From assembly GCA_017499595.2 (NCBI GenBank), contig CM039000.1:3596001-3660000 (forward strand): DNA of 64,000 nt, written 5' to 3'. The position numbers and the translations under genes are program-made. The notes under the pieces are model-generated. The model was not told the DNA's origin, made no database searches, and saw only the letters and a program-made list of their open reading frames with translations. Source of the stretch: Psilocybe cubensis (taxonomy: Eukaryota). Shown piece by piece: positions 1,899 to 51,643 of this stretch (its first letter is position 1; each line of letters starts with the position of its first letter).

Positions 1899-4800
1899 TA
1901 GTCGGCCAAAACTCCCAACTGCAACGTGAAACCATCGTGTGCAACGCGAGGTAAAGCCTTTGTGAAAACGTCTGCCAAATTGTTTGAAGTGTTGATGTAA
2001 ACCGTGTCGAGCGTCTTCTTCTCCACCAAGTCGCGTAGGAAATGAAATGCAATGTCAATGTGCTTCGTACGGGCATGGAATTCTGGATGATGCGCAATCG
2101 AAATGGCTGCCGTATTGTCGGTAAAGATGGTTGACGTTGATGGAATGTGGAAACCGAGCTCCGTGAAGAGTGAGCGGTGCCATAAGACTTGCTTCGCCGC
2201 ATGCGTTGTGGAAACGTATTCGGCTTCAGCGGTTGAAAGTGCGACCGTATTCTGTTTCTTCGAGCTCCATGCCACAGCGCCGCCTGCTATCGTAACCACG
2301 TATCCGCTAGTTGATTTCCGATCGTAGTTTTCAGCCCAATCGGCGTCGCAATAAACATTGAGATTTACGTCCAAAACTTGCGAATCGCCGCCGTAAGTAA
2401 GTTTGTGATTGCGCGTGCCCTTCAGATAACGAAATATACGTTTGACAGCGGTCCAATGAGTCGATTTCGGCTTGCTGGTGAATTGCGCGAGTTTGTATAC
2501 CGCAAACGCGATGTCTGGACGAGTTCCGAGTGCCAGATACATGAGCGAGCCGATGACCGTTGCATAACTGAATCCTAAACGCGAATTAACCTCCCCCTGA
2601 CCGTCTCCATCCTCCCGAACACCTTCATCCTTATCCAATCGCACGTTCGGGTCCATAGGCGTCGAAACGGGGTTCGCGTCTTGTAAACCAAACTTCTCGA
2701 GGAGTTTGTCGATGTAGTGTGCTTGCGAGAGCGAAATGTAATGGTCCTTTTGCTCGAGCTTGAATCCTAGCATCATCGAGGGCTGACCCATCGATTTAAC
2801 GTCGAATTTCGAGCCTAATTCTCGCTCCAGCTGGTCGTTGAGCGAGTCGTTTGTTGAGAAACTGATTATGTCGTCCACCCAGGTAACCAAAATCGTAAAA
2901 TCGCCGTTTTCAGCTCGACGGATGTAGCAGCAGTAATCGCTCTTGAGTTTCGTAAAACCGAATGAAGTGAGAGCGTTATCGAGTTCATGGTTCCATACGT
3001 TTCCTGCCTGCTTGAGACCGTAAAGCGAACGAATGAGACGGCATGCCTGACCAGTGCCATCGTCATAACCGGGTGGTTGGACCATATATATCTCCTCCGA
3101 GATGTAACCATGCAAATATGCACCCTTTATATCGAATTGACGCATCTTGAGATTGTGTACGGCCGAATATGCGAGTAGCGAGCGTAGCGTGTCGAATCGC
3201 ATGACTGGTGCGAATGTTCCGTCCTCGCTGTAGTCTGTACCAGGTCTCTGAGAGCATCCCTGAACGACTAGTCGGGCCTTGTACTTGATGACGTTCCCGT
3301 TTTCGTCCCGTTTCTTCGCGTAGACCCAACGGCATCCAACCAGTTTCCTTCCATCCGGAATCTTCATCATCTCCCAAGTACCCATCCGTAAAAGCGTCTC
3401 AATTTCTTCGTCCATAGCTGCCTTCCACGCAGCTGCCTCACAGCTTTCCAAAGCTTCTTCAAGTGTCCGAGGTACGTCCAATTCGCGCATGGCAAAGACA
3501 CGTTCCGAATCGTCTAAAATCGCGCCCCACAGCTGTTCTTTGACAATGTTTGCTTGCTCCGTTGCTGTAGACTTTGCGCTCGAGGTCTCGGTCGATTTTG
3601 TAGCGATTTGTGGTGCGTTTAGAGTCGTTTGGGATCGTGTAGTCGGTAAACGAGCATTCGGGTTGTTTGCCTTCTTGTAATCAACAAAATTGTGTTCACG
3701 AGCTGATCGACGTATGCTGGGCTGTGGAATCGATGCTGTAGACGAAATAGGTTCGTTCTTGACGGTTTCTGGCTCGTTTTCGCTGGATTTAACGTCTGTC
3801 GATTCGTTACGCTCCCCCTCAGACGATAATCCAGGAATTTCGACGTTCTGCGGCGTTTCGTTTTCGTTAAACGATACGTTTCGCGATGACTTCACTGTGC
3901 GCGATTTGGGATCGTAATAACGCACAGACTTCGAGCCTTCGTTAAAACCAACGAATACCATCTTCTTCGACCGTGGCTTGAGCTTCGAAAGCCCCTTCGT
4001 CTCGTCTAACACCCATACATCGCATCCGAACTCCCGAAGGTGAGAAACATCCGGTTTCTTGTTGTGCCAGCCTTCATATGGTGTCTTGTCGTCGAGTGCT
4101 CGAGTAGGCGCGCGGTTGCGTAAATAATTCGCGTAATTGACCGCCTCGTCCCAGAGAAAGAGAGGTAAATTCTTCGCAATAATCATCGCACGTGCTAGCT
4201 CCAACAGCGTACGATTGTAGCGCTCTGCGACGCCGTTCTGAGATGGGGAATATGGCGCCGTCGTCTCGATTTCAATGCCTCTCTCCGCCGCCCACTTCTT
4301 AATCCGCTCGTTCACGAGTTCCTTGCCATTGTCCATGCGAATGTACCTCGGATACTGCCCAAACCTCCTCTTCACTCGCTCCCCATGATTCTCAATCGCC
4401 TTCGCCGCCTCCTTCTTGTCCTTCAAGAAAACCACGCCGTTGTATCGCTTCGCGTCGTCCATAAACGTAATGTAGTAATAAAATCCATTTACCGAGCGTG
4501 TTCCGATAGGACCCCATACGTCGCTCATGGTTCGCTCTCCAGGAACCGTGGATCGATTTTCTGCTTCTCCAGGGAAAGGTTTATGCGTCTGCTTCGCTTG
4601 GATGCACGCCTCGCACGATGGGGATGGAATAGACGTTTCGTCCACGGAAAGACCGACGACAAGATCGTTCCGGACGAGTTTCTGCAACGACGACACTGAG
4701 ATATGGCCAAAACGACGATGCCATTGATCCCAGGTGAGTTTTGGCGAGACGTAGTTGACCTGTTCCCCTGAATTAAGCTGAGCGCGAGCGTGAAGAATAT

Positions 4801-6067
4801 ACATCTGACCGCGTTTCGACCCTTTTCCAATAACCTTATCCTTCGCATCCATCAAAAGAACCTTCCCATTCTTAAACGACGAGCTCCTCCCATCCCTCTC
4901 AAACCTTCCGAGCGACATCAAAGCATTTTCGGCTTCAGGGATGTGTAAAACGTCTTTCAAACGATGAGTAATCGTCTGCCCGTCGACATCGAAGTTGAGG
5001 ATGACTGTTCCGCGGCCTGCAATGATAGCTGGACTCTTTCCGACACCACGAACGGAGGAATTAACGAGTGGCGTATACTCGATGAAGGCTTCACGGACGG
5101 GACAAACGTGACTGGTGGTTGCAGAATCGTAAAGCCAGTCGTAACGAGAGAAGTTTGACGTCGAGTACGTGTGGTACGCAACCTCATCGTTGAGCGTAGT
5201 GTTGACGTCCTCCCGAGCCTGATTCGTCCGCCCTCTATTCTTCGTCTTCCGCCCCCTCGGACCCTTTCCTTCACGACCTCCGCCCTTCGCCCAGCAATCC
5301 TTCGAAATGTGCCCCATCTTGTGGCAATTATAGCACTCCTTCCCGCCGCTGCCATCCCTCGAACCATTACCCTTTCCATCCGACGACCCTTGACCTCCAC
5401 GAACTTGAAGCGTAGTCCCTCCGGCACCATCACCTCCACGCTCCTTCCGACGACGAGCTTCTTCAAGGAGAACACCAACGAGCTCTTGCGAAGTGAGCGT
5501 AGGACGATTCCCGCTCGAGCCCAAAAAGGATGACGCATAATTCTCCCAAGATTCCGGCAACGAGGTGAGCAAAATCATGACGAAATCTTCGTCCGATACA
5601 ATGCTGCCCATGATGTGCAGCTCCTCCTGGAATTGACGTAGCTTTGCGATATGCTCTGCCATGTCGCATCCCTCCTCTGCGGTTGCCCGGAAAAGTGCTC
5701 GTCGTGTCGCCAAAACACCGAGTCGTCCCTTGGATTCCTTCACTGTGCACAACTGCGTCCACATCTCGCGCGCCGTGCGCGCTCCCAGGACGTGTACCAT
5801 CTCCGCATCGCTTAACGCGAGTTCGATCCTGCATCGCGCTTTCGCATCTCCCTTATCCCACGCTGTCTGAGCTGCGATTTCTTCCGCCGTGGGTGCGTTC
5901 GGTTTCGCTGATCCTGGTCGAAGCGACGTGCCGTCCACGTATTTCTCCAGTCCGAGGTCCACCAGTACTGCTAGCATGCGCCGCTTCCACGGCATCCAAT
6001 TGTGGGCCTTCAGTGTGTCGATGCGATATCCGCCGATGTTGACTTCCGCGGTTGTCGAGTCAGCCAT
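1898..6067 (-). CDS. Copia Gag-Pol polyprotein, 1389 aa, uninterrupted
   Basis: Zinc knuckle CYNCHKMGHISKDC; protease WLYDSATTSH; integrase HHCC (WHRRFGH..CEAC) and DDE (SDVWGP, MDNGKE, NGVAERYNR); RT (KARLV, SLYGLKQ, WVDD); RNase H (YCDADWA, TAEAEY, TDN, LADVFTK). Confidence 0.97.
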   Translation of the reverse strand: MADSTTAEVNIGGYRIDTLKAHNWMPWKRRMLAVLVDLGLEKYVDGTSLRPGSAKPNAPTAEEIAAQTAWDKGDAKARCRIELALSDAEMVHVLGARTAREMWTQLCTVKESKGRLGVLATRRALFRATAEEGCDMAEHIAKLRQFQEELHIMGSIVSDEDFVMILLTSLPESWENYASSFLGSSGNRPTLTSQELVGVLLEEARRRKERGGDGAGGTTLQVRGGQGSSDGKGNGSRDGSGGKECYNCHKMGHISKDCWAKGGGREGKGPRGRKTKNRGRTNQAREDVNTTLNDEVAYHTYSTSNFSRYDWLYDSATTSHVCPVREAFIEYTPLVNSSVRGVGKSPAIIAGRGTVILNFDVDGQTITHRLKDVLHIPEAENALMSLGRFERDGRSSSFKNGKVLLMDAKDKVIGKGSKRGQMYILHARAQLNSGEQVNYVSPKLTWDQWHRRFGHISVSSLQKLVRNDLVVGLSVDETSIPSPSCEACIQAKQTHKPFPGEAENRSTVPGERTMSDVWGPIGTRSVNGFYYYITFMDDAKRYNGVVFLKDKKEAAKAIENHGERVKRRFGQYPRYIRMDNGKELVNERIKKWAAERGIEIETTAPYSPSQNGVAERYNRTLLELARAMIIAKNLPLFLWDEAVNYANYLRNRAPTRALDDKTPYEGWHNKKPDVSHLREFGCDVWVLDETKGLSKLKPRSKKMVFVGFNEGSKSVRYYDPKSRTVKSSRNVSFNENETPQNVEIPGLSSEGERNESTDVKSSENEPETVKNEPISSTASIPQPSIRRSAREHNFVDYKKANNPNARLPTTRSQTTLNAPQIATKSTETSSAKSTATEQANIVKEQLWGAILDDSERVFAMRELDVPRTLEEALESCEAAAWKAAMDEEIETLLRMGTWEMMKIPDGRKLVGCRWVYAKKRDENGNVIKYKARLVVQGCSQRPGTDYSEDGTFAPVMRFDTLRSLLAYSAVHNLKMRQFDIKGAYLHGYISEEIYMVQPPGYDDGTGQACRLIRSLYGLKQAGNVWNHELDNALTSFGFTKLKSDYCCYIRRAENGDFTILVTWVDDIISFSTNDSLNDQLERELGSKFDVKSMGQPSMMLGFKLEQKDHYISLSQAHYIDKLLEKFGLQDANPVSTPMDPNVRLDKDEGVREDGDGQGEVNSRLGFSYATVIGSLMYLALGTRPDIAFAVYKLAQFTSKPKSTHWTAVKRIFRYLKGTRNHKLTYGGDSQVLDVNLNVYCDADWAENYDRKSTSGYVVTIAGGAVAWSSKKQNTVALSTAEAEYVSTTHAAKQVLWHRSLFTELGFHIPSTSTIFTDNTAAISIAHHPEFHARTKHIDIAFHFLRDLVEKKTLDTVYINTSNNLADVFTKALPRVAHDGFTLQLGVLAD

Positions 6068-6150
6068 TTGACGTCGAGTACAAGTTTAGATATAGATCGA
6101 TAAGAATAGAACGAGTTTAGAACAAAGCGAGCTTTAGTTATGACCTCTCG

Positions 6151-13635: not shown

Positions 13636-16600
13636 ATGTCTTCAAACTTGGGGCTGCTAGCTGAAAAGGCGGCTAAACTTGCTGGTACACCTACGACTAC
13701 TGCAGCGCCAGCGGTATGTATTTACATTCTAACTATGTTCTCCCCACTGCGTCATCCGACTTTGAGTCGCATTTCCTCTAAATGTTTCTTTAAGAATTGG
13801 AAATATTGACCGACTCTTTCTGTAGTGGCGCCAGTTTCCGTTCTTTGACGCAGTGACCGTTAAAGATGTTCACGACTTGAGTAGCACTCCGGATATTTTC
13901 AAAGTATGTTGGCCAAGTTTGTTCCTCGGTTTTATTCTCTTACTTATGAGTCAAGCAAACAGTCCACACCCGAGATATCGACTGCTATCGCGTCATCAGC
14001 AGGGACGCTCGTTGCAGATATTCATGGGAGTATTCATCTCCTAAACCGAGATTTTGAATCCACAAATAGCTGGCTCGCTCATGTCGGAGGGAGAGTAACA
14101 CATATGGCGGAAAGAAGGGGCATTCTGGTGACTTTGGGTGTGAGTTCCTGTAATCTAGGGTTATCAGCATTCTAAGGTCTGACGTGTCAGTAGGAGGAAG
14201 ACGCCGTTCGATCCCCCTTACTCAAAGTATGGGATTTGCAAAACAAAGACAAGAAGACGGGCGTGCCTAATCTCCTTCGCTCGACCAAAGTACAATTAAA
14301 CAATCGTCCACACCCTGTGAGCTCTAAATATTTTGACTGTTTTGGAATACTTATAAAGTTCAATCGATACTATAAAAGGTCACAACCGTGGCCCTATCAG
14401 CTACTGTTGCCCATTTGGCCATTGGACTCGGAGATGGAACCGTTATTCTATTTCGCCACCTCGATCAGTCTCTTGCTACATCCACTTCTCTTACTGCACT
14501 TCCTAAGGCGCGTACTGTACACGAGTCACCTACAGAACCCATCACTGGGCTTGGCTTCCGTGAGCCGGTTCAGGATGACGAATCTCCCAACTCCTATCTT
14601 TTCATTGTCACGACAAACCGAGTACTGTGTTATCAAGCATCTGGGAAAGGCAGTGGTGGAAATGCAGTTGTTGTCGACGAAATTGGGTCGGGCCTTGGAT
14701 GTGCGACTATGGATAGGGATGGAAAAAGCATGATAGTGGCGAGAGATGAGGCTATTTATATGTGTGGGGTTGATGGTCGTGGAACATGTTATGCATATGA
14801 AGGTTCGTCATATGGCTATAAAGAAGTTTGACGGCCGCTCATGAGAGATTTTAGGCCACAAATCGTCCATACACACTCACCAGAATTACCTCGTCATCGT
14901 CTCGCCACCGTTCTTCCCTACCGCCTCATCTGCGTCAGCCACTGTCCGAAACCTAGTAGCTCGCTCACCTAATGCCACTGAAACCGATGTCACGAAGGTC
15001 ACTGTGTTCGATCTTCCCAACAAGATGGTAGCCTACTCGGACACCTTCAAACAAGGCGTCCGCGAAGTTTTCTCGCAATGGGGACATATTTACGTCCTTT
15101 CAACAGAGGGAAATGTTAGTTGCATCTATCGTGTCGGCGGCGTTTTGCTAACGATACGTTCTTCATCTTAGCTGGTGTGTTTAGAAGAGAAGCCTACCTC
15201 AGCAAAACTGGATATGCTGTACCGGAAGTCACTTTATGCTCAGGCTCTCAATATGGCTTATACTCAGAATCTGGATAAATCTACTGTTGCTGATATCCAA
15301 CGCCAATATGGAGACCATCTATACGGCAAAGGTGATTATGACGGAGCCATGCAGCAGTATGTGCAAACAATTGGCTACCTACAGCCAAGTTATGTCATTA
15401 GGAAGGTATGGGGATTAAATCATCAATCATGAGTGCACAATGTTCATATTGCAAAAGTACTTAGATGCTCAACGGATCCACAACCTGGTCACTTATCTCC
15501 AAGAATTACATTCGTTGGGACTGGCCAACGCTGACCACACCACGCTTCTTCTGAACACATATACCAAGCTAAAGGATGTTTCGCGGTTGGACAGCTTCAT
15601 CAAAACCGAATCCCGCCGTAACGCGAATGATAGTGACGAACTACCTTTTGATCTGACCACTGCGATCCGCGTCTGTAGACAAGCTGGATATTTTGAACAT
15701 GCCTCGTATCTGGCGAAAAAGTACGACAGACACGAGGATTATCTGAAGATACAAATCGAAGATGCTGGAAACTTTAGCGAAGCCTTAGCGTATTTACGGA
15801 AGTTGGGCCCTGAAGCAGTATGCATCTCACTACAATCTACCAAGCTCTATTTTAACCGTCTAATGCCAGGCTGAAAGTAATTTGGCCCGTTATGGCCGAG
15901 CTATGCTAGATAGCCTACCTGAAGAGACCACCCAGCTTCTAATCGACCTTTGCACTACAACGGGTCCTCTGACTCCTACAGAACCCACCGAGGCGTCAAT
16001 ATCGGCACCCAAACCCGCCGCACCTGTACCCTCCTATCTGTCATATCTCGCGCTCAATCGTGGCGCAACAGCTACGACCGTTGTCTCATCCGAAACCGCC
16101 ACCCCACCGTCACCTTCCATCAAAACCGCCAGAGCAGACACAGCATCGCGAAGAGATTCCGTACATGATGTTTCCTCGCCGACCACCCCTCCTCCTCCGA
16201 CAACGTCCTCCGTCATAACTTCACGCCAGCCGCCACAGTCTGCCGTGCCCGCACCACCCCCGGTGAAGCCCCTCTCGCCTCGAATATACTTCCCACATTT
16301 TGTCGATCACATGAGCCAGTTCGTCGTCTTCCTTGAAACTGTGGCGAAGAGGCGCTGGGGCCAGAGTGTTGACGACCAATCTCCTGGTTCAATCGAGTTG
16401 TATGGATCACAAAAAGATGATGCGGAAACTCCTGAGGTGGACGATGAATTGGTTGACAAGATGGACCAGGTTGCTGTGTGGAACACCCTTTTGGAGCTAT
16501 ATCTCACGCTACCGAATAACAAAGGCGGACCTGCCAACAAGAGTGCTCAACTATTCGAGGAGAGTACGATGAGGGATAAAGCCCTGCGCGTTCTGCGGAG

Positions 16601-17522
16601 CTCCAGTATACCATACGATGCAACACATGCTTTGATTCTTTGTTCTACATACCGCTTCACTGACGGTCTCGTACTACTTTGGGAGAAGATGGGTATGTAC
16701 GAAGATGTTTTGCGCTTCTGGATGGACAAGGACAAAGAAGGCAACACACCGAACGCGTCGCAGAAGGTTATCGAGCATCTCATGTACTATGGCAAGGACC
16801 ATCCTCATCTCTACCCGCTTGTTCTGAGGTTCTTGACCTCGACGCCGGAGCTGCTTAACCGGCATCAAACTGATTTGAAGGACATCCTGGAACATATCGA
16901 CGATGCGCAATTGATTCCCCCACTGGGCGTCATCCAGGTCTTGAGCCGAAATGGAGTGGCGAGTGTCGGTTTAGTGAAGGAATGGCTGATCAAGAGGATC
17001 AAGGAAAGTAGGAGTGAAATACAGAATGTAAGTTTCCCTTGTCAATATTTTTGCTTAATCTATTCAATATATTTCTTTAGGATCAAGCTCTCACGAAATC
17101 GTATCGTCTGGAGACTGCTGACAGGCTAAAGCAAGTTGCTGAATTGACAAACACAGAAGAGCCTCGGGTGTTCCATGTCACAAGGTGCTCCAGCTGCCTG
17201 GGCCAGCTCGACCTTCCCAGCGTGCACTTCATGTGCAACCACTCTTATCATCAACGGTATGTATTGCGTGTCTTTTCTTCTGAGCGTGTATTCATCTAAT
17301 CGCTATTCGCTTGCTTGTAGGTGCATTGCGGACAACGAAGCCGAATGTCCTGCGTGTGCGCGCGAACATGGCGTCATACGCGAAATCAAACTAAGCAATG
17401 ACAAGCTTGCCGATAGACATGATTTATTTCTTGCGGAGGTCGAGGAGAATGGATTCGAGGCTATCGCATCTGCGTTCGGGAGAGGTGTATTGAATGTGGC
17501 GAGACAAGAAGAAGTGTCATAG
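13636..17522 (+). CDS. VPS11: HOPS/CORVET core subunit Vps11 (multi-exon)
   Basis: N-terminal WRQFPFFD; YGDHLYGKGDYDGAMQQY; YLDAQRIHNL..YL; HTTLLLNTYTKLKD; C-terminal RING (CSSC..LDLPSVHFMCNHSYHQRC..CPAC). Confidence 0.93.
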
Positions 17523-24713: not shown

Positions 24714-27169
24714 ATGTTTCTGTTTCTCTTTGAATATCTTTTACAAATATTCTTTCCTGCTAGCTTGCTTATCGTCCCCGAAATTTCGTCAGTCCCTACG
24801 GTCGGCCCTCAATCGACATTATATGTTACCAATGAGTACATCTCTCCAGACGGTTTCCGACGATCGTGATTATCCATAAATTCATAATATATATGCCAGT
24901 TTGATCTGACCGTGTCTTCCCCTTTTCTAGTGCTTCTCTGATTAATGGCGTGTTTCCAGCGCCAGTTATCGTTGCGACTAAGGTAGTGCTACCACCAAAG
25001 CCGTAGATCTCCGATTACAGGATAATCTTTGTTTAATAGGGCGACCATTTTAAATTGAACGTCTCCAACTTTCTCTCTGACAGCACCATGCTCAGGAGTA
25101 CAAGTATCGTAAGTAGTACGCACTCTAGCATCCGGAGAGGATGATGGTGACGCGTCTGACTATCCAACTAGCATTGGCATGGGATTCTTCAACGAGGCAC
25201 GAACTGGGCTGACGGACCTGTTGGCGTTAGTCAATGTCCGATATCACCTAATCATTCTTTTCTTTACGAATTCAACGCTATTGAAGCCGGGACATTCTGG
25301 TATCATTCTCATTATGGTAAAGAAGTGCTGTATTATGCCATTTCAGACACCTCTGACCTCATATCTATCACTTTAGGTACGCAGTACTGTGATGGAATGC
25401 GTGGTGCCTTGGTAGTATATGATCCTCAAGACCCTCAAAGAACGCTATATGACGGTATGCTTCAATCATACGGTGCTATCTAAAATCACTTATTAATTTT
25501 CACTTTCGCATAACTTTGTCAGTCGATGACGGTAATGAAGTGTTTGTTATTTAAGGTGGTACAGCATACTGAGTATGAATTTCTAGAAAATACAGTAGTA
25601 ACAATAGGTGATTGGTGAGGGATTTCGCCATGGCCTTGGACTGTTACTTCATTCTGACCTGACAAGGTATCATTATCCGTCTCCTTCTCTGGAGACTTTC
25701 CCGAAGGCAGATTCGACATTAATTAACGGGAAAGGGCGATATCCCAAAGGCAAACCAGCAGCTCTTTCAGTCGTCAATGTCGAGTATGGAAAACGCTATC
25801 GCTTGCGTCTTATATCCATCACATGTGATGGCTCCTATACCATTTTCATAGACAAGCATCCCTTTACTGTGATTGAAGCTGACGGTCAAAGTGTCGTCCC
25901 TGTCAGAGCTATCGACGCTTTGACGATCTTTGCAGGTGAGGCTCGCATCGATCTTTATCAGAAACTATTCAAACAAACAGGGTCCAAGGGCAGCGCTATT
26001 CTGTGGTCATTGTCGCTAACCAACCGATCGGTAATTACTGGATAAGAGCGCAGCGCGGCGTCGTTCAAGGCAACGTTGATCCTTTTGAGGGAGGACTTAA
26101 CTCTGCTATCTTGCGCTACAAGGGCGCTGAGGAGGTCGAACCTGTACCGATTCCATATATTCCACCCAACCGTGTTCTCCGTGAGACGGAGCTACACGCT
26201 CTAATTGATCCTGAAGCTCCTGGAAAACCAGAACAAGATGGTGGGGACGTAAACCTTCACTTCTCCATTACCTACGACGAGAAGACGAAGATGTTCCTTA
26301 CCAATGGTAAATATTTCCAGCCTCCAAAGGTACCTGTGTTACTCCAGCTTTTGTCTGGAACACCTCCGGAAGAGCTCCTCCCGGAAGGATCGATTTTTAC
26401 CCTTCCTCGGAACAAAACCATATCCATCTCAATGCTTCCTGGAGAATTTGATACGCCGGTATGCATTTTCTAGGATGAAGAAAAGTCTGAATACTGACCA
26501 TGAGATTGCAATTACATTCCCTTTTACTAGCATCCATTCCATTTACATGGGGTATGTTTAAAACCGTGTAAATTATCAGTCCAAAGTGTTGATACCAAGC
26601 CGTCGTGCAGCATACCTTCAGTGTTGTACGAAGTGCCAACACGACGGATGATCCTGCTCCTAAATACAACTATCGCGATCCCGTACGTAGGGATACCGTC
26701 AATCTTGGCAAGGTAGATTCAGGAAGCAATGTTACCATTCGCTTCAGAACCGATAACCCTGGACCTTGGATCTTTCACTGGTGAGTTTAGATCGTCTTCC
26801 TTATTCTCATAGCTAATGAGCTCGTACAATACCACTAGTCATGTTGATTGGCATCTTGAGAGGTAACTGGCTTGAGAATGATCATGTTCTTCCTATTTGT
26901 GCTAAATCCGTTGCAGAGGCATGGCGATCGTATTTGCCGAGGCTCCTGAAGAAGCGCGCAAGGAGATACACCCACCTGGTAAGAAAATGTTCCATCATGG
27001 TCGAATGTTCTGTACAGATTCTGATTTTCAACATATCTCAGAGGAATGGCATTATCTTTGCCCAGTCTTTGATAATCTTCCTGAATCCTTGACGTCGATA
27101 TCTACAGTAGCTATCCCACCTCCTACGGCAACAACCATCGAGCCAACTCCCTTCATAAACCTCCTTTAA
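24714..27169 (+). CDS. Laccase / multicopper oxidase (AA1), many introns
   Basis: All four copper-binding motifs are recovered after splicing: HWHG (25171), WYHSH (~25279), HPFHLHG (26531), [12 protein letters not shown] (~26776-26923). Also [18 protein letters not shown] and DNPGPW, plus a hydrophobic N-terminus. Confidence 0.93.
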
Positions 27170-41108: not shown

Positions 41109-42882
41109 ATGGAATCAATGTATACAGACAGCGAAACAGAAAAATGGCTCTTGACTGATCGTGGCTACTCATACATCATCCGTCAGTGTTTTTTAATTAG
41201 TTTGATGATTTTATCGATCGCTGATTTCCTGCGTCCTTTAGTTGCAAGTGCGGTTTGCGTTATTTATGATCATAGTAAGTGTTATGCATAGTGAAATTTC
41301 ATTTTTGGATCATTGACACTTAGTGGTACATTACAGTGCTAACGTTTCATGACGAAGTCAGTATTCAGTATCAGCCACAGTAAATGATTCGAATGTTGCT
41401 TACTGAATTCTTCAGGTGGAATACGTTTGGGTACATCCTGTTTGCTAAAATTCCTTGGGCATGGCTGATCCAAAACCGTGGTCGCCGTCTTTCAGAAGCG
41501 ACCAAAGCTTAGCGTGGTTCAAATCCTTTTCTTTATAGTGAATTGTGTTTTTGTATTATTCTTTGGGCTGCATGATAGAGAAACTAACTGCATCCAGAGT
41601 CGTTATGGTGGAGATGCACTACAGATGTAGACGTCTAGTTTTACTTTGAGCGTATCTATTCGGTCTGACCTTTACTCGTTTCAGATATCCTGCATACAGT
41701 ATGTAGATTCACTCGCCGATCAGAAGCAATCGAAATTGACCGTTTGCAGTAATTGTCCGCCATATTCTGGATGACACTGTTAAGGTACGCCTTTTATGAT
41801 ATGTTGCCATGTGTAGTCCATCCATTATTGGAAAATGTGACTCATACGAGTATGCAGGAGTTAGTGTACGGTCAATGAAGTTATCCATATATATTGACTC
41901 CCCCCTAGCTGTGAGTTTGCTTTCCGAGATTTCATCTGCCTCCTGAAATTGATGTTTTCTTTTAGGCAATTTTGTGCAAGTTTACATCGGATATCTCGGG
42001 ACTGTTATTCTATGCTCGACGCAAGGTATTTTTTCTCAAGGCCTACTCGATTCATATATTATTTGAACAGTTTTTAAATCTGATACAGGGATAATGATAT
42101 ACAGAGTGTCGTGCATGTACAGTCACAATCGGAAGATTATTATCATTCTGGCCACTGCCTTCATCAGTGAATTGACGTCCATGATCATCTCGCAGAGCAT
42201 AGCAAATAACATACACAACTGTAGGTACTTTTTTAACTTGATTAATCTTCGACATTAACGCTAATTCTGAATTTTTGCTCGTGGTTCCATGTCGTTCAGC
42301 TGTTCCAGACCCAGCTCCTGGCGTCCATATTTGCAAGCAAGATTCCTTTCCAACATGGGCATATTCTATCTGGATTCCAATTTTATTTCATGAGACCGTC
42401 CTTCTACTTCTGGCCACAGTAAAGGGCATCTCATACTACAAATCTGATACACGTGGGTTGTTGGATGACAACAATAACGACGGCTCTGCGGGTCATCACT
42501 CCCTCTTGTATATTCTTGTGCGAGATAGCATAACATTTCCCTTGATGTGAGTACGATTACTTCAAATCTAGTGGATCTCTCTGATATCATTGAATATCCA
42601 GTGGGCTTGTAGTTTGCATTCTCAACTTGATCTCATGGGCTGCTCTTCCTGTACGTAGATTGTCATTTTGTATCACTCACGTAAAACTAAGAAAGACCAT
42701 ACGGAATACAGTATCTGATTGCACAAATGACGTTCCCTTTTGCATTATTCATTCCTTGCATCCTAGGATCGCATTTAGTGATCAATTTGCGGGAGGCATA
42801 TTACCAACCATTCACCAAAGAGTGTGATATTCAATTTGTACATAATGAGAGTGGTGTTTCAATCGACTTCGATATGCCGTAA
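41109..42882 (+). CDS. Multi-exon polytopic membrane protein, DUF6533-like paralog 4
   Basis: KWLLTDR, SAVCVIYDH, LTFHDE, VEYVW, RDSITFPL, HLVINLREAYYQPFTKEC. Confidence 0.75.
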
Positions 42883-43069
42883 AAATGATTGTATTTACAT
42901 GTCATATAGAGAGCGTCAGACCAAAGTTGTTTTCTGATATAATTTTCTCCTCTTCGGATCGTTTAAGCTGGGCGTCTAAGACGCAACGACACCATCAGAG
43001 TCGTTGATCTATTTTTAGACCATCACAGTTAAAGACGCAGAGGACAGGTGGTTTGCGAAAAAAAATGGC

Positions 43070-43113
43070 GCGGACTGTCCGCCAGACTGTCCGCCGGACT
43101 GTCCGCCGGACTC
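43070..43113. repeat. Left subterminal array of 12-bp units C(G/A)GACTGTCCGC (3.5 copies)
   Basis: cggactgtccgc cagactgtccgc cggactgtccgc cggactc. Confidence 0.9.
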
Positions 43114-43445
43114 ATAGGCCTTTGGGTGGGCCTGTGTGACTTGGGTGAGTGACAGCCGTGCTCACTCTGCTCTACAGCGATCAGTGGCCTTCCCCGACAC
43201 ATTACCGCCCTCCGCCCCCCGCCCCCGACCTGGCCATGAGAATGCTAAGTGCCACTGGTTAATATTTTAATGGCACCCCGCCTCTCCTGTATTTTTCCGC
43301 CTTTTCCACCAGTTACTCCTGCGGTGTGCTACTTCCATAGACAAGGCCCGTTTAGGTAGTATTTATTGTAGCTGTTTTAGTAGACAATAGATGTAAAATG
43401 CTAATACAATTACATCGTTGAACAACTTCTAACCTTGCAACCATT

Positions 43446-45733
43446 ATGTCCTCTTCATCTAGTGCATATTCTTCATCTACTCTCCAATCAATCCTTCAAA
43501 TCCAAGCTAGTATTGCCAAATATTTGGACTTTGAAGGATGTTTGAAGTTCATTGAACTTATCCAACTCCTAAAGCCAACAATCTGTCTGTCACAACAACC
43601 AGGACTAGCAGAATCTGATGCGGGTGAAGACAAATGTCCAGCACGGTTGCGTCTGAACGTACACACTTTTCTCGCACAATCTTTAAGTGTCGATCATGAG
43701 GCTATGAAGATTATTTGGCGTGCAATGGCCAATATTGCGTGGAATTTTAGGGTTGATGAAAGCTGTGTTCATTCCTTTGGTCAACGTCATATTCAATGCT
43801 TTCTTGACTATGGAAGACAGAATGGCATAGGTGAGTTAGCATATATATCAAGCTAAAACCACTACTAATTCTAAAATCGGAGCCTTTTATCATCTAATGC
43901 CTCCTGTTCGTCATTGCCTTGATCCACGATGTGTTATCAAGCCCAAGACTTCTAAAAAGGATGAGCTCCATCGACGTCCACTGAAAGAAGCACATAGCCG
44001 TTCTGTTACTGTTTTTACACAATCATTTGGACCCATCCCGGGTATTTCTACTTCAATGTTTTGTTCGGGTATGTGTTTAGTATTGTTATTTTGTTGAAAC
44101 TCCCCCTTCTAACAATAATAAACGCAGGATGCCAAACTCGATACTACCCTAACTACTGGGTAGATAGAGCACAATCCACTCGGACATTTTACCGTATACA
44201 TCGCACCTTTCTGCATGTTACAGAAGGAATTTTTATGGACATTGCCACGTTGGAATTGTTTACGACAATGATGTTGACGTCTTGGTAGCTTCTTTCTTTT
44301 GTTGTGAATTTCTTCCATTAACTTGGAGTGTACAGGACTTCTGCTTCAAATTGTGCCCGCATCTATAATGAAGCAATAGCTTCAAAGTCCCTGTCATCCT
44401 CTCTTCCTGCAGCATATTCCAAAAGCATGGTGCTAGAACACAATGACGTATGGAATGGTCTTAGTCTCTTCTGGCTTCTTGAAGACTCGGAAGAAGAAGA
44501 TGAGGTCTTACAAATTGACCATGTAGCGCCTAGTCAAGCCATCCGCCTCAGAAAAGCCTTAAAGAGACGGAACCTTCGGATGGCAGGGACTGGTCAGGAA
44601 GCTTGGAACCATGTATGTGATTTATGCTGCTGGTATAATGATTTGCCCGATGGAACACAGAGTAAATTTTGAAAATTTATGATTCTAGTGATATATAACT
44701 CATGCTTGATTCTAGCTTTCCTTCGTTCTGTGGTTACTGATGGCATAACTATTGGACGGCCTACCTGCTCTATTCATGACTGCGATATTCCTTTGGATTC
44801 CGTCAAACATCGGTTCTGCCCTACACATAAAGATCAGAACCTTATCTGTGCGGTTACTAGCTGCTCAGCTCCCATTGATGAGGGCTATCAAACGTGCAGT
44901 CTGAAGGATCACCGAGCTCTTGAAGCATACAACGATATCCACAATAAAGCAATGTTTCAATTAAAACTTCGGCTTGCCCGTCTCAAAACCTCACAGCCCA
45001 CTGATGCCTTTTCCACTGATGATGGCCAGTCAACCATATTTGGCGATGAAGAGGTTTTGATTGACGCCAATGGTGTCTGTGACGAGAAGTCAGAGAAGGG
45101 TAATCAAACATTGCGAGCTCGGTTTGGAAGGCGACGCACTCATAATGAAGAGCTGTGTGTGGCATCGTGTGGTGTAATTCTTGGACGAGCAACATTCTAT
45201 GGTTCAGAGGCCCCAAACGGAGTACGGGTGCGTCATTTTTCTTGCTTCTAGAGAATTGTTGCTTATTTAATTTTCAGACATTTTGGAAGACTTTGTTTCC
45301 TACCCAAAAGTCTCTTCCAGGAGTTCTTTGGCACGACAATAACTGTCGAATTATGTTAATGCTTGAAAAGGAGAAAGACACGTACTTTTCCCACTCAGCA
45401 TTACCCGTTGACGTATTCCATTTCAAGTGTAAACATAAAGCTCAAGACGACAAATGTAATGCCAATTGTAACCCAGCAAAATGGCCCGAGCTTATGACGC
45501 CTGATGGGAAGTGGCGTTTTAACTCATCTGCAGCAGAACAAGCCAACGCTTGGCTAGGAGGGTATCAAGCCATTGTTCGTGAGATGCAGGCCGACAGATA
45601 TGAATTCTTTTTGGACGAGTTAATCAAGAGGCGAAATCGAAACATCATTAAGGATTTGGAGAAAAAAGGGAAAAATCCACATGAAATCCCAAGGGATTTT
45701 TTACTCAAGCCAGATACACCCAGAGTCGATTAG
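43446..45733 (+). CDS. KDZ-family transposase with CxC5 and CxC6 cysteine clusters, 6 exons
   Basis: CxC5-like PPVRHCLDPRC..TVFT..GPIP..SMFCS|GCQTRYYPNY; CxC6-like VVTDGITIGRPTCSIHDC..HRFCPTH..CAVTSC; catalytic-like HDNNC, LPVDVFHFKCKH, FNSSAAEQANAW. Confidence 0.85.
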
Positions 45734-46330
45734 TGATATGTAGGAAGTTGTAATAAAGAGCATTAGAAATCATGTTGGAACCTACATTAGTTGTTGTGAA
45801 CAAGCAGCAATCCGGGTTTAGTTGTTGCTCTGTGTCTTGAAAGCCTGCCGCTCGCACGATAACCCCGGCCCAGGGGTGATCCTTGGTGTTATCAAACAAG
45901 CGGCAGTTTTTCAAAACATGCATCCAGTATTGCCTCGCTACCCCACAACAATAAGCTGTAATAAGCTTTGCCACTGATGAAACTGAGAAACACATATGGG
46001 CACGGCGTCAACAAAGTGTGAAGTGTGAATGCCAGTTTATTGAAAGCTAGGGTGCTAACACTCGATCAATAACCAGACCCAGAACAAACGTGAATCAAAA
46101 ACATTGAAACTGAAGGCAGGAAATCGCATTAACATGCCGAAAACTCACCGCGTCATATATCAACCCATGCTGATCCCACACCTTGACTTGACTCGCAGCA
46201 CCTCCGCAACGCCCAACATCCTTCACACGCGCTGTTGTCACGCATGTCTACCACCTCATCCTCATCCTCCTTTCCTAAGTATTGATGCGCATACATGCTT
46301 CCGGGGTACATTGGCATTTCGTGTTCTACA

Positions 46331-47373
46331 TCACTCTGGCACACTGAGGTCGAGTTGAGAAACGTTCGTCCGGTTGATGAGAGAGATGAGGTTGTGGGGT
46401 TGTGGGCAGCATTGTGGAGACAATATTGAACGGGAGTCGCAAAAGGGAAGAGACCGATTCTGAATACCACTTTTGAGTTGTACAGAGAACAGGATTGCGC
46501 TGAGCTCTGAGTCCGTCGGCGTCCGCGTGAGCGCACCCATGACATCTGCGAGCTCGTTAATAAGTAGCCGCTTCTCCCCAATCCACCGAGTAACTCTGTC
46601 AGCGTCTATTAATTCCAACAGCTCAGGATCATCCTTCATTTGCTCGCGGGTCAGCATAATGCGATATGCAGCCTGTCCAGAATCCACCACATGATCCGTC
46701 GAACCAAGTTCCTTCAGCATTGCTGCTCGAGTGAGCGACTTGATACCATCGGCGGCTAATATGATATCAGCCTCGACTCGCACGGCTGGACCTACTAATG
46801 GCGTAGCCAAGAACGATGGCTTCCTGTCATCCCCGCCAAAATTCACTTCAGATACGGCAGTCGAGAAGTGAAAGGTAATGGCAGATTGTGCTTTGCAGCC
46901 TTCGTAAAGGCTCCCAGCGAGCGAGGCACGGTGTCCTACCATGTGAGCGTAGCCATATTTATCTTTGACGGAGTCGAACTCGACAAAGCCGAGCTCTTTG
47001 TCGGTTGTTCCCTCTGGGAAGATTTAAGCACATTGATTTACTATGTCAAGAACTGATATTACTTACGTCTGATGCTCGTGCTCTTGACTAAGACAGCCTC
47101 GGACTCGATCTTTTTCCAAACGCCGAGTTTATCGAGAATGCGTGCCATATTGGGGGCAAGTTGAATTCCTGCTCCTACAAAACCTAGGTTGGGCGCAGTT
47201 TCGTAGACATCGATATAGAGAAACCCTTCGTGTGCTAACGAGAGGGCACAAGTGAGGCCACCCATGCCTTGATACTAGCTATGAGTTCATCATGTGAGTC
47301 AACTAACCGGAGGAAGGAGCTCACCTGCTCCAAAGACCGCGACTCTCAACCGTCTGACGTCGTCGAAGGTCAT
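46331..47373 (-). pseudogene. Truncated FAD-dependent monooxygenase (salicylate hydroxylase-like), captured in the transposon
   Basis: VAVFGA|GMGGL Rossmann motif, GAGIQLAPN, HRA, ADIILAADGIKS. Recognisable similarity stops after RWIGEKR (~46568) and the GDAAH motif is absent. Confidence 0.8.
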
Positions 47374-48068
47374 CGTTATCAGACCTAGAGAAAGACACAA
47401 GACTCAGTGAACATGATGCATGAACGACTATGTTCCAATCTACCTAGAGAAAGACACGAGACTAGATAATAGTGTAGTTAGTGACTAGGCGAGAGGATGC
47501 TAAAGGGAGAGTGGAAACTTTACCTCAGTGAACATGATGCATGAACGACTGAGGGAAAGAGGGCCGATGGATTTATTGAGACGGAAGCTATGAGCGCAAT
47601 GAGCAGGTCATTCCTTGGGGAAGAGTGCTGTAGACATACCACAATTAAAAAACTCGCACTTGTTTCCGGCTACAAATACAAGCCAGAGCCCGTTGTCATC
47701 CAAAAAATTTCGATGGAGTGATTTGACGGACTTACAGCACGGATTTTGAGGTCGGGTCTTGCAGGGAGTCTTGACGTTGACGAGCGAGCTGTTCTACTCG
47801 CCTCTCAGTGACCGGGGGTTGTTGATGTGGTTTTGAGTATGTTGCCAGTGTATTTCCGTGCCCGAAAATTCCTGGTAACATACTCTCTGCCTCTTGGTTG
47901 GTGGAAACAGCGAACGGGTGTGTTGGGAGGTGTAAACGATGGATGTGCACACGGTCATGTGACTACACGCGCCCTCACGACTTCGTCAATTTCTGGGTCG
48001 TCGGATTGGCATTAACTGTAAATTTGTTCAATTGTAATATAAGTAATCGTTACAAAGTGCTACTGTAG

Positions 48069-50861
48069 CTACAGAGAATCAGGCTCTAAAGTCAAGTCAA
48101 TGATTTCCCAGGTACCAAAAGCAATGCCAGGATGAGCAGAAACATCCTGCTTGATAGGTTTTTGGCCTGGAGAATCCACGGTCAGGTCAATAATATCACC
48201 GCTGATAACAGCACGCTCTTTTCCTTTTGCAGAGCCAGTGAGGGTAATACTATCACTCTTCTCTTCTTTTATAGTAGGAGTAGATATTGCTGCATCCTTG
48301 GTGATAGCATGCTTGTCTTGCAAAAGTTGCATTACTTCTAGCATAGAAATCCGAAGATCTTCTTGAATGAGAAGTGTCACTGTTTCAGGAAAAAGCACCT
48401 CTTCAATAACTGAATCATAGGTGAGAGGCTGTAGAATTGACATATCTATGTCTTCTGAATCTTCAGGAAACATTTCTCTTAGCTCAGAAATAATAAGAGC
48501 TTGTATCTCTGGACCATAGCTTTGTAGAAGATACAAATTAGTAAATCTAGCCATCTAAGAGCAGTATAAAATTACTTACTAGGCAATGCAATCTAAAAGA
48601 AGTTGATTCTTTGATTTATCCGGAGTTTGACTGCAGCTAGCTTCAAAGGTTTTTCTGGAATTACAGAAAAACATGCTTTCTTCAGGGTCCATAAGAACGT
48701 AACAAAGTAATTCTTTATCACCCTGGATTTGATGACGGAGACTGGATATCTTTTCTTTGGTCAATAATCCACCATTGACATTAGACTGAGCTATATGAGG
48801 CAAGGAAATATGGGAAAGAGGGCTGACACGAGCACTAGGACTGATGTTTTCTGAAGAACTTGAGTCATCCAAGCTGTCTGAAGAGGAGGACTCAGAAAAG
48901 GTATCTGGAATATCCTGGGGGTTTTTTAAGGCAGCCTGTAATGACCTATATGTTGCCTGTTTCGAGTTGCCCATGTCCACAAAATAGCCAACAATATCTT
49001 TGTCATATGTTTTCCAATAAGATTTGTGTTCATAAAATGTGGATTTGTGAAAAGAAGCATCTGGAAAAGCAGCATAGAAAGCATCTTTGACACTTATACG
49101 AGATCTTGGACGAATAGATAATGCAGATTTCTTGGATGACTTCATATAAGGGTTGCTTCTAGAGGTTTGAGATTTGGATAGTGTTTCTTGCATTTGAAGA
49201 AATCCATTGTGAATTTGATAGACCTTGAAATCAAACGGCCACTGCTTTGTAGAGTTATGAGATTTCTTTAGAACCTTTGGTGGTGGTGGTAAGTTATGAG
49301 ATTTCTTTAGAACTTTTGGTGGTGGGGGTAAATCACTGTCTGATGAATTTGGGGTTCTATATCCATGTGGGCGCTTCTTCCTAGGAATATGGATATGATT
49401 TGATAAAATTGGACTAGCAGACCGATTTCTTGAGGTAGAATGTGTAATTGTTAGAGAAGATGCTTCCTGTATTGCAGATTGACGAATAGGCGACACTAAT
49501 GTGGTGTGTTGTTGGGCTAACAAAGCTTGTGATGTCTTTGGTTGTAGTTTGAGCTCATCTTCAATTCCAGGACAGTGCTCTAATGTTTCTCTAAGGCTTG
49601 GACGGATTTTTAAAATCAGTCTTTGGCCCTTTTCAACAGTAAGAACACTTTCCATGGTGAGAGTTACCCATTCTCCTTTCCAGTAATCCAGTTTGGTTGT
49701 TGGCTGAAGCTCCAAGTTTTTCATTAACTCAGCAGAGTCTGACAAGCGAAAATGGGGAAAGGATTGTATATAATATTCAAGCCTAATAGGAGGCTGTCCA
49801 TTCTAGAAGAATATTATTAACTGCTTGAATATAAACAAGAATATGAACTCACAGTGTGATATACAACCAAAATACATGTTCTTTTTCGTTGTTCATCCAT
49901 TTCATGTTGTTTAACTTTTAGAGATTTGAGGTTTCGGGTATGACTAAGTAATCCTGTTCGCTTTTGTGCCCATGTACCTCCTACAGGTTGAGCCAGGCCT
50001 CTTGGAATAACCTGTCCAAGTCCGAACTGAGTAGCAGGTGGTGTAGAAATAACCATATCCTGGTTTGGGGATTGATTTGGAGAGACCTGAGAAGCAGAAA
50101 TATTGAAAGGGCTCGGTGGTGGTGAGATAGAAATGTTTTGGGTAACAGATTGGGTAGAAAGAGGAGGAAGAGGAGGAGAATGAACTTGAGAGATTCTTTC
50201 TGGAGAAGCAGGAGTTGAAATATCAGGAGCATAAGGTACATTTTCGGGCTGGCGATGGGCATGACATGCCTTTCTAAAAGCTTGCTTAGAAATGGCATCT
50301 TTGCAAGCTTTGGTACAACAGGTCTTGCATTTATTTTCAATGCAAGTTCTACTCCCTTGAGTTCGGGTTCCTGACTTTGTAAAGCATGTAGAAACTGTGC
50401 AGAGTAGTTTATCTGATATTGGAATAGGAATAACACCAGTAGAGTTGGACTGAGCTCGTCTTTGTTGAGTCTGATTTGGCTGAGAAGAAGAATGATTGGC
50501 AGTGTTTGAAATGGAAATATAAGGTCTAAGAGTGCGAGGATAGCCCTGTGGATCATCAGGAAAATTAATTCGGTGCAAAAGACGTTGGGCATCCTCATAT
50601 ATATATGCAGGAGTATGATGATAGGTGTACAAACACCTATAATCAGAACACTAGACAATTAATTAGACTTGCACAATAAGCTAAGTTAATAACACATACA
50701 GTTTGACAGAGAGATCCTTTCAAATGCCTCTTGGAAGGAGATCCAGTAGCTTTGTATATAGCTATAGGTGGCATAGGTCTTCCACATGGGCGGTTGGATC
50801 TTCCTGGACAAAGACCAATAGGTGATATAGTAGGATCAGGAGGTAGGTTATCTGGGTTCAT
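48069..50861 (-). CDS. Transposon accessory protein: Cys clusters plus C-terminal RTC4-like domain, 4 exons
   Basis: Exons ~50861-50700, 50650-49853, 49802-48580 and 48522-48069 splice in frame. Contains C..C..CIENKCKTCC..C..CHAH, QWPFDF, and AY|YGPE...EEVLFPETVTLLIQEDL, which resembles RTC4 (GYYGP..VLVPE..LI.ED). Confidence 0.7.
49254..49331 (-). repeat. 39-bp in-frame tandem duplication (LPPPPKVLKKSHN x2)
   Basis: Two near-identical copies inside the accessory gene. Confidence 0.85.
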
Positions 50862-51255
50862 TGCTAAAACTATGCTCTAAAACTCAAGAACTTGTGCCAA
50901 ATTTATAGATTTTCGGTTGTCATATTACATATATCTCCCTATAGAGAGCTACATAGTATGTCAATGCAGAGATTTCTAGCTTTGGCGCTACAAAGCGCGT
51001 CTAAACACGAGTGGCTGCGTTGGGCCAGCCACAATATCCAAAAATGGAAAAGAAGCCGCAATAAGCCGGCCCAATTCTCACGTGTTTGGCAGTAGTGTCA
51101 AGTGGCAACAACAATGCGTGCGCCGTGTAGCGCATCAAGCGGCGGGGCATTGTTGGAAAGCATTGAGCTCGCTGCCTCGAACAGTGACCATGCAAGTGGG
51201 CCCCCGACGTGGCCCGGAGGTCACACTATGGTCACAAATACCCACGATACACCCA

Positions 51256-51287
51256 GAGTCCGGCGGACTGTCCGCCAGACTGTCCGC
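51256..51287. repeat. Right subterminal array of the same 12-bp unit
   Basis: gagtccgg cggactgtccgc cagactgtccgc. Confidence 0.9.
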
Positions 51288-51643
51288 GCGAAAAAAACTC
51301 GTGGACGAACCTTTCTGAAGACGCATTGCCAGCAATTACGTCAAGTGCTTTCATAGAATGAGTGAGGTTGTTTTCAAAGACCCTGGTTCACGATCAATTC
51401 AATAGGCAACAACGTGAGAAACTGAGTGAGTAAATAATGTGCATGTTCTTAGAGAAAGAGTCCTGATCATTGAGTACAAATACACCAGGTCGTCAAGACC
51501 TCAAAGAAGGAAAGAAAAGGAGATAAAAGAAAAAAACGAAAGTGGTTAGAATGTAGAAAGCCAACAAAAGAGTTCGAATAACAATGGAGTATAGGAAATT
51601 GGGTTGGAAAGAAGTAAAATTGGATTCCGGGAGGAAGTAGAGT

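Follow-up and report, generated by a model that had tools for sequence, protein, structure and literature searches.

The 64,000-nucleotide stretch of the Psilocybe cubensis genome analysed here (NCBI GenBank assembly GCA_017499595.2, contig CM039000.1, forward-strand positions 3,596,001 to 3,660,000; hereafter the window, in whose numbering positions are given) contains an 8,278-bp element at 43040-51317 that is flanked by an 8-bp target-site duplication (TSD) and occupies this site in only some strains. We consider it very likely that this is a cut-and-paste DNA transposon, probably autonomous, which belongs to the CxC5/CxC6 lineage found in mushroom-forming fungi and has been mobile recently. 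An earlier note on this DNA had proposed here a complete transposon of the KDZ (Kyakuja, Dileera, Zisupton) type with two convergent genes, and had offered two readings of its ends. The features of the element are as follows (aa, amino acids).

43032..43039, + strand: left copy of the TSD, 8 bp, AAGACGCA (sequence; empty-site joint)
43040..51317, + strand: whole element, 8,278 bp, GAGGAC...TTTCTG (loose read ends, empty joint, matching ends in relatives)
51318..51325, + strand: right copy of the TSD, 8 bp (sequence; empty-site joint)
43040..43113, + strand: left end, a degenerate terminal 28 bp followed by an array of the 12-bp unit GGACTGTCCGCC at 43068-43113 (repeat search, tip alignment)
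51256..51317, + strand: right end, an array of the 12-bp unit at 51256-51289 followed by 28 bp finishing in TTTCTG (repeat search, tip alignment)
43446..45733, + strand: gene 1, putative DDE transposase, 673 aa (predicted splicing, homologues, fold model)
43446-43830, 43883-44068, 44128-44284, 44336-44661, 44716-45227, 45278-45733, + strand: exons of gene 1 (predicted gene model, no stops)
Parts of gene 1: CxC5 at aa 128-256; CxC6 at aa 358-422; D360/D542/E609; D567xxH570 (profiles, alignment)
50861..48069, - strand: gene 2, conserved partner, 877 aa (predicted gene model, homologues, structure model)
50861-50700, 50650-49853, 49802-48580, 48519-48069, - strand: exons of gene 2 (predicted gene model, no stops)
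Parts of gene 2: two Cys/His clusters; predicted beta-grasp domain at aa 310-395; RTC4-like domain at aa 695-796; two IIDLT motifs resembling SUMO-interacting motifs (SIM-like)
45734..48068, no strand: cargo, 2,335 bp, a mosaic of captured genomic pieces (read depth, variant letters, loose ends)
46560..47373, - strand: 5' part of a host FAD (flavin adenine dinucleotide)-dependent monooxygenase gene (salicylate-hydroxylase-like), introns included, ending after about 235 codons (comparison with P0130)

Boundaries, ends and signs of recent movement

Read mapping over 41500-53000 was carried out with four public runs (two raw-read and two contig runs) from 16 listed. Both raw-read runs contain a joint between 43031 and 51318 (31 and 16 reads) that skips 8,286 bases with 8 letters compatible with either side, so that the empty allele has a single AAGACGCA; such a single-copy joint is what the earlier note had named as the sign of an empty site. 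The read tables of these two runs document the empty joint and are silent on the filled allele at 43040-51317 in the same runs, and the two contig runs gave only scattered low-depth pieces over the mapped interval. Two host genes flank the insertion point, each with its 3' end towards it. Rereading of the sequence confirmed AAGACGCA at 43032-43039 and 51318-51325. The 8-mer on its own is not rare, with five matches in the window against 2.18 expected and nine of 100 shuffles reaching five. A third occurrence at 42978-42985, 54 bp to the left of the TSD, lies in a small palindrome beside a short hairpin (42973-43008) and is possibly due to chance or an old footprint.

The two readings offered earlier were this 8-bp duplication around 43040-51317 and a 6-bp duplication, AAGACG, around an element at 43038-51317 with CAGA...TCTG termini, which would resemble the CA..TG ends of Kyakuja-1_LB and -2_LB (PMC12730594; here and below, statements on published sources concern the parts of them available to us). 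The empty site by itself fits both, its 8 letters matching either side. Reads from other copies of the element, however, stop before 43040 (184 and 158 reads) and after 51317 (127 and 108) in the raw-read runs, and because they stop short of 43038 the reading with CA..TG termini is removed. The two bases preceding GAGG also vary among six relatives, where they form part of an exact 8-bp repeat. The chance of a 6-bp duplication with Kyakuja-like ends is therefore negligible, and the element is confirmed as 43040-51317 with an 8-bp TSD; copies in the reads and six relatives end at equivalent positions, as correctly placed boundaries had been expected to show. The flanks at the loose read ends are mixed (agreement 0.42-0.50), and the mixed consensus outside both ends, compared by eye in the 8-bp register, agrees in 6 and 7 letters out of 8, which lends weak support.

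The relatives are 80 metagenome loci around transposase homologues (numbered with L), several of them in near-identical pairs. One 4.9-kb element occurs at two sites, in L058 and L070, as copies that are 98.7% alike, each with a GAGGAC start, a TTTCTG end and its own, different, exact 8-bp repeat. When 1,167 pairs of GAGG(A/G)(C/T) and TCTG near transposases were tested for flanking repeats, seven exact 8-bp pairs were found (window, L014, L025, L058, L069, L070 and L078) against 0.02 expected, with one exact 6-bp pair against 0.28 expected and no 7-bp pair. GAGG(A/G)C...TCTG ends are thereby shared by six of the 80 loci. Among them L078 (270-3492), whose two ends and 8-bp TSD enclose 3.2 kb, encodes a shortened transposase and has probably lost part of its interior.

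The longest inverted arms, of 33 bp (43068-43100 and 51257-51289), are set 28 bp in from either boundary, in agreement with the shared end arrays noted earlier at about 30 bp inside the repeats. GGACTGTCCGCC is confined to 43072-43107 and 51262-51276 (five matches in the window, 0.19 expected, a number reached in none of 100 shuffles), and the arrays are likely candidates for transposase binding sites. Aligned tip to tip, the seven bounded elements have degenerate inverted repeats in which 11-22 of the first 28 bases are alike. Mismatches at position 1 (G/C), position 4 (G/A) and position 6 (C versus A or G) are fixed in all seven, which suggests that the two ends are not equivalent. At 43073-43106, 75-90 reads per run match the 12-bp array alone and then carry on in a single different sequence (agreement 0.98-1.0), as if the array were shared with another repeat family.

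Recent mobility of the element is pointed to by the perfect TSD, the empty alleles, the identical transposases on three contigs (see below), the raised read depth (element body to flank 1.78 and 2.17 in the two raw-read runs) and the joints of derivatives. The latter are internal joints at 43091-51120 (16 and 3 reads) and 43219-51292 (9 and 14 reads), corresponding to derivatives of about 254 and 212 bp.

Two convergent genes and the cargo between them

The description of two convergent, intact genes held up, as both translate without stops and are identical, letter for letter, to proteins annotated in Psilocybe cubensis (gene 1 to P0124, gene 2 to P0121). The P0124 sequence is on record for three contigs of this species, and P0001, from a fourth contig, differs by one residue. 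The family of gene 1 is spread across mushroom-forming fungi (157 matches, annotated as hypothetical protein). A profile check suggested in the earlier note placed CxC5 and CxC6 above the Pfam cut-offs in the window protein and in all 47 aligned members. PF18758, the Pfam profile for KDZ transposases, matched none of the 47 at an E-value of 1 or better, and as a control the same profile library does detect a CxC2-KDZ transposase gene in L026. That gene (L026 11629-13262) lies about 1.3 kb past the gene 2 homologue of a CxC5/CxC6 element.

D360 and D542 are each kept in 46 of the 47 aligned members and D567, H570 and E609 in all of them, and the CxC6 insertion site directly follows the first Asp. 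From this conservation and their position, D360, D542 and E609 are the predicted catalytic residues. The structure model of gene 1 (predicted local distance difference test, 84.5) has only DDE transposases or integrases among its top 34 structural matches. The best is the IS256/Mutator-like ISCth4 (PDB 6xg8; Z 11.6, root mean square deviation (rmsd) 6.2, 310 aligned, 7% identity), which unlike gene 1 is bacterial and has neither CxC clusters nor a partner gene; comparison with the integrase of Rous sarcoma virus gave Z 10.0, rmsd 3.5 and 144 aligned. The D567xxH570 of gene 1 corresponds to a D/CxxH motif after the second Asp that we take to be a trait of the IS256/Mutator family. A search of profile A1 for solved structures found no relative. 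Taken together, conservation and fold model suggest that gene 1 encodes the transposase.

Gene 2 has 342 relatives at an E-value of 0.001, and a hidden Markov model built from 35 of them was searched in the transposase loci. Of 26 loci with at least 3 kb downstream of the transposase, 25 have a convergent gene 2 relative there, as do 41 of 48 with at least 1.5 kb, and just one match lies at any other location. A 10.6-kb Gymnopilus contig carries homologues of both genes at a distance of two locus tags. Because its convergent placement is kept in 25 of the 26 long loci, gene 2 is probably an element-encoded helper. Its model consists of ordered domains with disordered linkers between them. The RTC4 profile matches 25 of 32 aligned members, and aa 310-395 resemble beta-grasp folds at Z 5-7, a modest score in a range common for the tool. 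Motifs of the form (V/I/F)IDLT, which we presume to be SUMO-interacting motifs, stand at the end of 12 of the 32 members against 0.55 expected, and in none of the 47 transposases. A whole-protein search of the Atlas with gene 2 returned unnamed basidiomycete clusters only. Since Z values in this range are common, we do not propose a DIX-like polymer role on the strength of the SOSEKI match (Z 6.9, rmsd 3.0, 80 aligned). Within gene 2 there is an in-frame 39-bp tandem duplication at 49253-49330.

The gap between the genes matches the 2.3 kb of cargo first estimated. Its monooxygenase piece is 99% alike to P0130, which lies on another contig and continues where the window diverges, and at 46700 and 46759 some 40% of the reads show another letter, as the host gene predicts. 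Since introns are kept in this piece, the cargo appears to have been picked up as DNA. Reads from other loci pile up on 45845-45893, 46033-46470, 47512-47559 and 47616-47790, and short duplications occupy 47383-47550. The 48-bp piece at 47512-47559, with a depth of about 270-370, is part of another multi-copy repeat. In the relatives the inter-gene gap is absent or different, the total length being 4.9 kb in L058 and 10 kb in L014, and their 91 internal open reading frames (ORFs) include one kynureninase piece (L014), one alpha-kinase piece (L025), one RTC4 and one DDE_3. The L025 element is bounded and 5.6 kb long; its alpha-kinase-like piece (L025 3701-4144, - strand) sits between transposase and gene 2 and may be cargo or a fused gene 2 tail. 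No TET/JBP match was found in the scanned internal ORFs of the window or in the 91 of the relatives, a scan that short exons could escape.

We propose that the gene 1 product binds the subterminal 12-bp arrays and that its RNase H-fold DDE core (D360, D542, E609) would cut at both ends of the element. The cut ends would be joined to the target with an 8-nt stagger, repair of which would give the 8-bp TSD. The gene 2 helper could contribute DNA or chromatin binding via its Cys clusters and protein contacts via the beta-grasp domain and the SIM-like tail. The gap between the 3' ends of the genes would tolerate foreign DNA, with cargo gained probably by template switching in gap repair, and the derivatives of about 254 and 212 bp, shortened by internal deletion, would be mobilised by the machinery of the full element.

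Relation to known transposons and competing explanations

An RNase H-fold core with D, D and E, a TSD of fixed length and an empty site place the element among DDE cut-and-paste transposons. Membership in the broad KDZ group is likely, going by the Pfam names of the KDZ-associated CxC clusters (CxC5 and CxC6 in 47 of 47 members) and by Atlas language-model features, which put KDZ nearest among the named clusters (best 0.88) and serve as no more than a lead. By eye the motif order looks like that of KDZ; hhalign of profile A1 against one CxC2-KDZ exon gave no match (probability 0.3, a single exon). The label "KDZ-type" rests on the CxC5/CxC6 names and on this language-model lead, since PF18758 matches none of the 47 members. 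The accompanying statement that fungal KDZ elements are mostly recognised from protein domains needs correcting, as complete elements with TSDs have been published (PMC12730594, PMC11588098, PMC8290104).

The element appears to work like a KDZ transposon, yet it fails stated defining features of Kyakuja, Dileera and Zisupton. Kyakuja has 7-bp TSDs and CA..TG ends whereas Zisupton and Dileera have 8-bp TSDs (Kojima 2025, PMC12730594), and a Marasmius library likewise gives 8 bp for Dileera and 7 bp for Kyakuja (Hiltunen 2021, PMC8290104). With the Kyakuja of Agaricomycetes the element shares the host group and weak or absent terminal inverted repeats (TIRs) with subterminal repeats (PMC12730594, PMC8290104), and the Kyakuja consensus starts CAC, CAG, GAG and GAC resemble the GAG and CAG tips here; it differs in its 8-bp rather than 7-bp TSD, found in all seven bounded elements, and in GAGG..TCTG rather than CA..TG ends. 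TET-bearing fungal families are described as 9-23 kb long with a TET/JBP gene, whereas the element has 8.3 kb and lacks a TET/JBP match in the ORFs scanned. Dileera has the same TSD length but carries CxC1, found in none of the 47 members, and has TIRs that begin with CACC or GACC and, at about 100-250 bp, are longer than the inverted arms here. Zisupton also shares the 8-bp TSD, and its SWIM and CxC4 (as stated for KDZx1) are found in 0 of 47 members. In Cryptococcus both CxC1 elements and CxC4/SWIM elements carry 8-bp TSDs (Huang 2024, PMC11588098). Like the Zisupton-type KDZx1 of C. deneoformans and the Dileera-clade KDZ1-3 of C. neoformans, ours is a fungal DDE element in the range of 6-11 kb with an 8-bp TSD and extra ORFs, and KDZx1 has two ORFs as well and no detected TIR. 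The Cryptococcus elements differ in having PF18758 with CxC1, or CxC4 plus SWIM, and a TIR of 236 bp in KDZ1 (PMC11588098). The element here has instead CxC5 and CxC6, no PF18758 or SWIM match, short degenerate ends and an RTC4-like partner. PIF/Harbinger, CACTA and Kolobok transposons also pair a transposase with a conserved accessory gene, and Pack-type elements capture host gene fragments with introns; their TSDs and ends are unlike those described here, and scans of the element and gene 2 proteins gave no Pfam match to the accessory domains of those two-gene transposons.

It is a real possibility, somewhat short of even chances, that the lineage has already been catalogued, for instance among the fungal Zisupton families of Repbase, and that the element is one more member. 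Its TSD length is that of Zisupton and Dileera, KDZx1 has the same combination of two ORFs, 8-bp TSD and no TIR (PMC11588098), the nearest named Atlas clusters are KDZ, and a name may stand in Repbase or in Iyer 2014, which defined these domains, both outside the scope of our comparison. Against this, the ends were found in no paper searched: the Kojima 2025 supplement contains no consensus starting with GAGG (first 5' 400 bases, in which a control word was found; PMC12730594), and the Marasmius library has no GAGG(A/G)C start apart from a Mutator-like element with a 9-bp TSD beginning GAGGGT (PMC8290104). The 47 members also lack a SWIM or PF18758 match. Among the matches listed, CxC5/CxC6 has this meaning in PMC7641404 and PMC12568894 alone, and further literature for comparison is found in PMC5751038, PMC8226300 and bioRxiv 2025.05.19.654958. 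A more far-reaching joint reading, which we put forward tentatively and think rather unlikely to hold in every part, is that CxC5/CxC6 represents a separate DDE lineage beside Kyakuja, Dileera and Zisupton. It would be obligately two-component, with polarised ends (GAGG(A/G)C on the left, CAGA(A/G)(A/G) on the other strand on the right) and a helper coupling the transpososome to SUMO or chromatin through its beta-grasp domain, RTC4-like domain and SIM-like motifs.

The closest published parallel has been explained in another way. The sporeless MSH4 allele of Pleurotus ostreatus contains a multi-copy 6,792-bp insert with a CxC5/CxC6 ORF, for which no KDZ transposon was seen nearby and Copia was suggested (Lavrijssen 2020, PMC7641404). 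The two cases are alike in the multi-copy segment (7 kb in Pleurotus), the CxC5/CxC6 ORF (660-739 aa), the short overlapping direct repeats and the recent insertion; there the ORF was not taken as a transposase, and no TSD is reported in the available text ("target site" and "duplication" each occur 0 times; PMC7641404). We predict that the MSH4 insert belongs to the CxC5/CxC6 element family. That the CxC5/CxC6 gene is instead no transposase, with Copia moving the segment or accompanying it, would agree with the placement of all the CxC5/CxC6 inserts at most 15 kb from an intact Copia (PMC7641404), with an intact Copia ORF in the window (1901-6085) and with the missing PF18758 match. It is very unlikely, as gene 1 has a DDE fold with a conserved triad, the TSD is 8 bp against 5 bp in curated Marasmius Copia families (PMC8290104), the element has no long terminal repeats and retains introns, and the Copia of the window is 37 kb distant. 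A transposon moved by gene 1 alone, with gene 2 an old passenger or acting on host silencing, is also unlikely, if less so. Gene 2 does evolve fast (mean column identity 21%), has lost part of its RTC4 region here and finds no match in 7 of the 48 loci with 1.5 kb downstream; its place and orientation are nevertheless constant in 25 of 26 long loci whose transposases are 32-73% identical, and the cargo, unlike gene 2, changes from element to element.

Several points weigh against the transposon as we describe it. Movement is judged from polymorphism and copy identity, and the splicing is that of predicted gene models. Intron 1 of the gene 1 model ends in an uncommon GAG acceptor; homologues align across this junction in unchanged register. 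Foldseek gave no match at an E-value of 0.001 or better for the structure model of either gene. The end motif was picked after the window and L058/L070, so that just four of the seven matches (L014, L025, L069 and L078) are fresh; L014 and L069 have similar ends, the near-identical pairs mean that the relative loci are not independent, and L011 has plausible motifs at both ends without a matching TSD. SIM-like tails occur in just the 12 of 32 gene 2 relatives, and gene 2 here is without the CxFCD and GWP motifs that most relatives keep before the RTC4 match, so this copy may be partly degenerate.

Consequences and surroundings of the element

For annotators the element provides a structural definition, namely GAGG(A/G)C...TCTG ends, an 8-bp TSD and a convergent partner gene; boundaries, relatives and both genes agree with the earlier suggestion that this copy defines the ends, TSD and two-gene layout of a CxC5/CxC6 element. 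It is the CxC5/CxC6 lineage that is absent from the literature searched, the ends of fungal KDZ elements in general being already described. It is no new kind of biology, as two-gene DDE transposons, 8-bp TSDs and captured fragments are already known. It does provide a hypothesis that can be tested on the insertion underlying commercial sporeless oyster mushrooms, which its discoverers tied to Copia, and it connects the RTC4-like domain with transposition. If the joint reading were correct, such an element and not Copia would have made the sporeless MSH4 allele, and many multi-copy basidiomycete RTC4 genes would be transposon genes. In rust fungi 15-45 RTC4 proteins have been reported and interpreted as DNA-damage genes (PMC9370660); these may be transposon genes like gene 2. 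An intact, strain-variable element together with its 212-254 bp derivatives is also a ready candidate for assaying transposition, or for tagging genes, in Agaricales.

Elsewhere in the window, the Copia ORF at 1901-6085 (- strand) is an unbroken 1,395-aa gag-pol frame of Copia type (RVT_2, Retrotran_gag_2). Among the ordinary host genes are VPS11 (14194-17126), a multicopper oxidase (25608-26470), an F-box gene (27391-29178), adenylosuccinate synthetase (29499-30452) and a cutinase (37404-37946).

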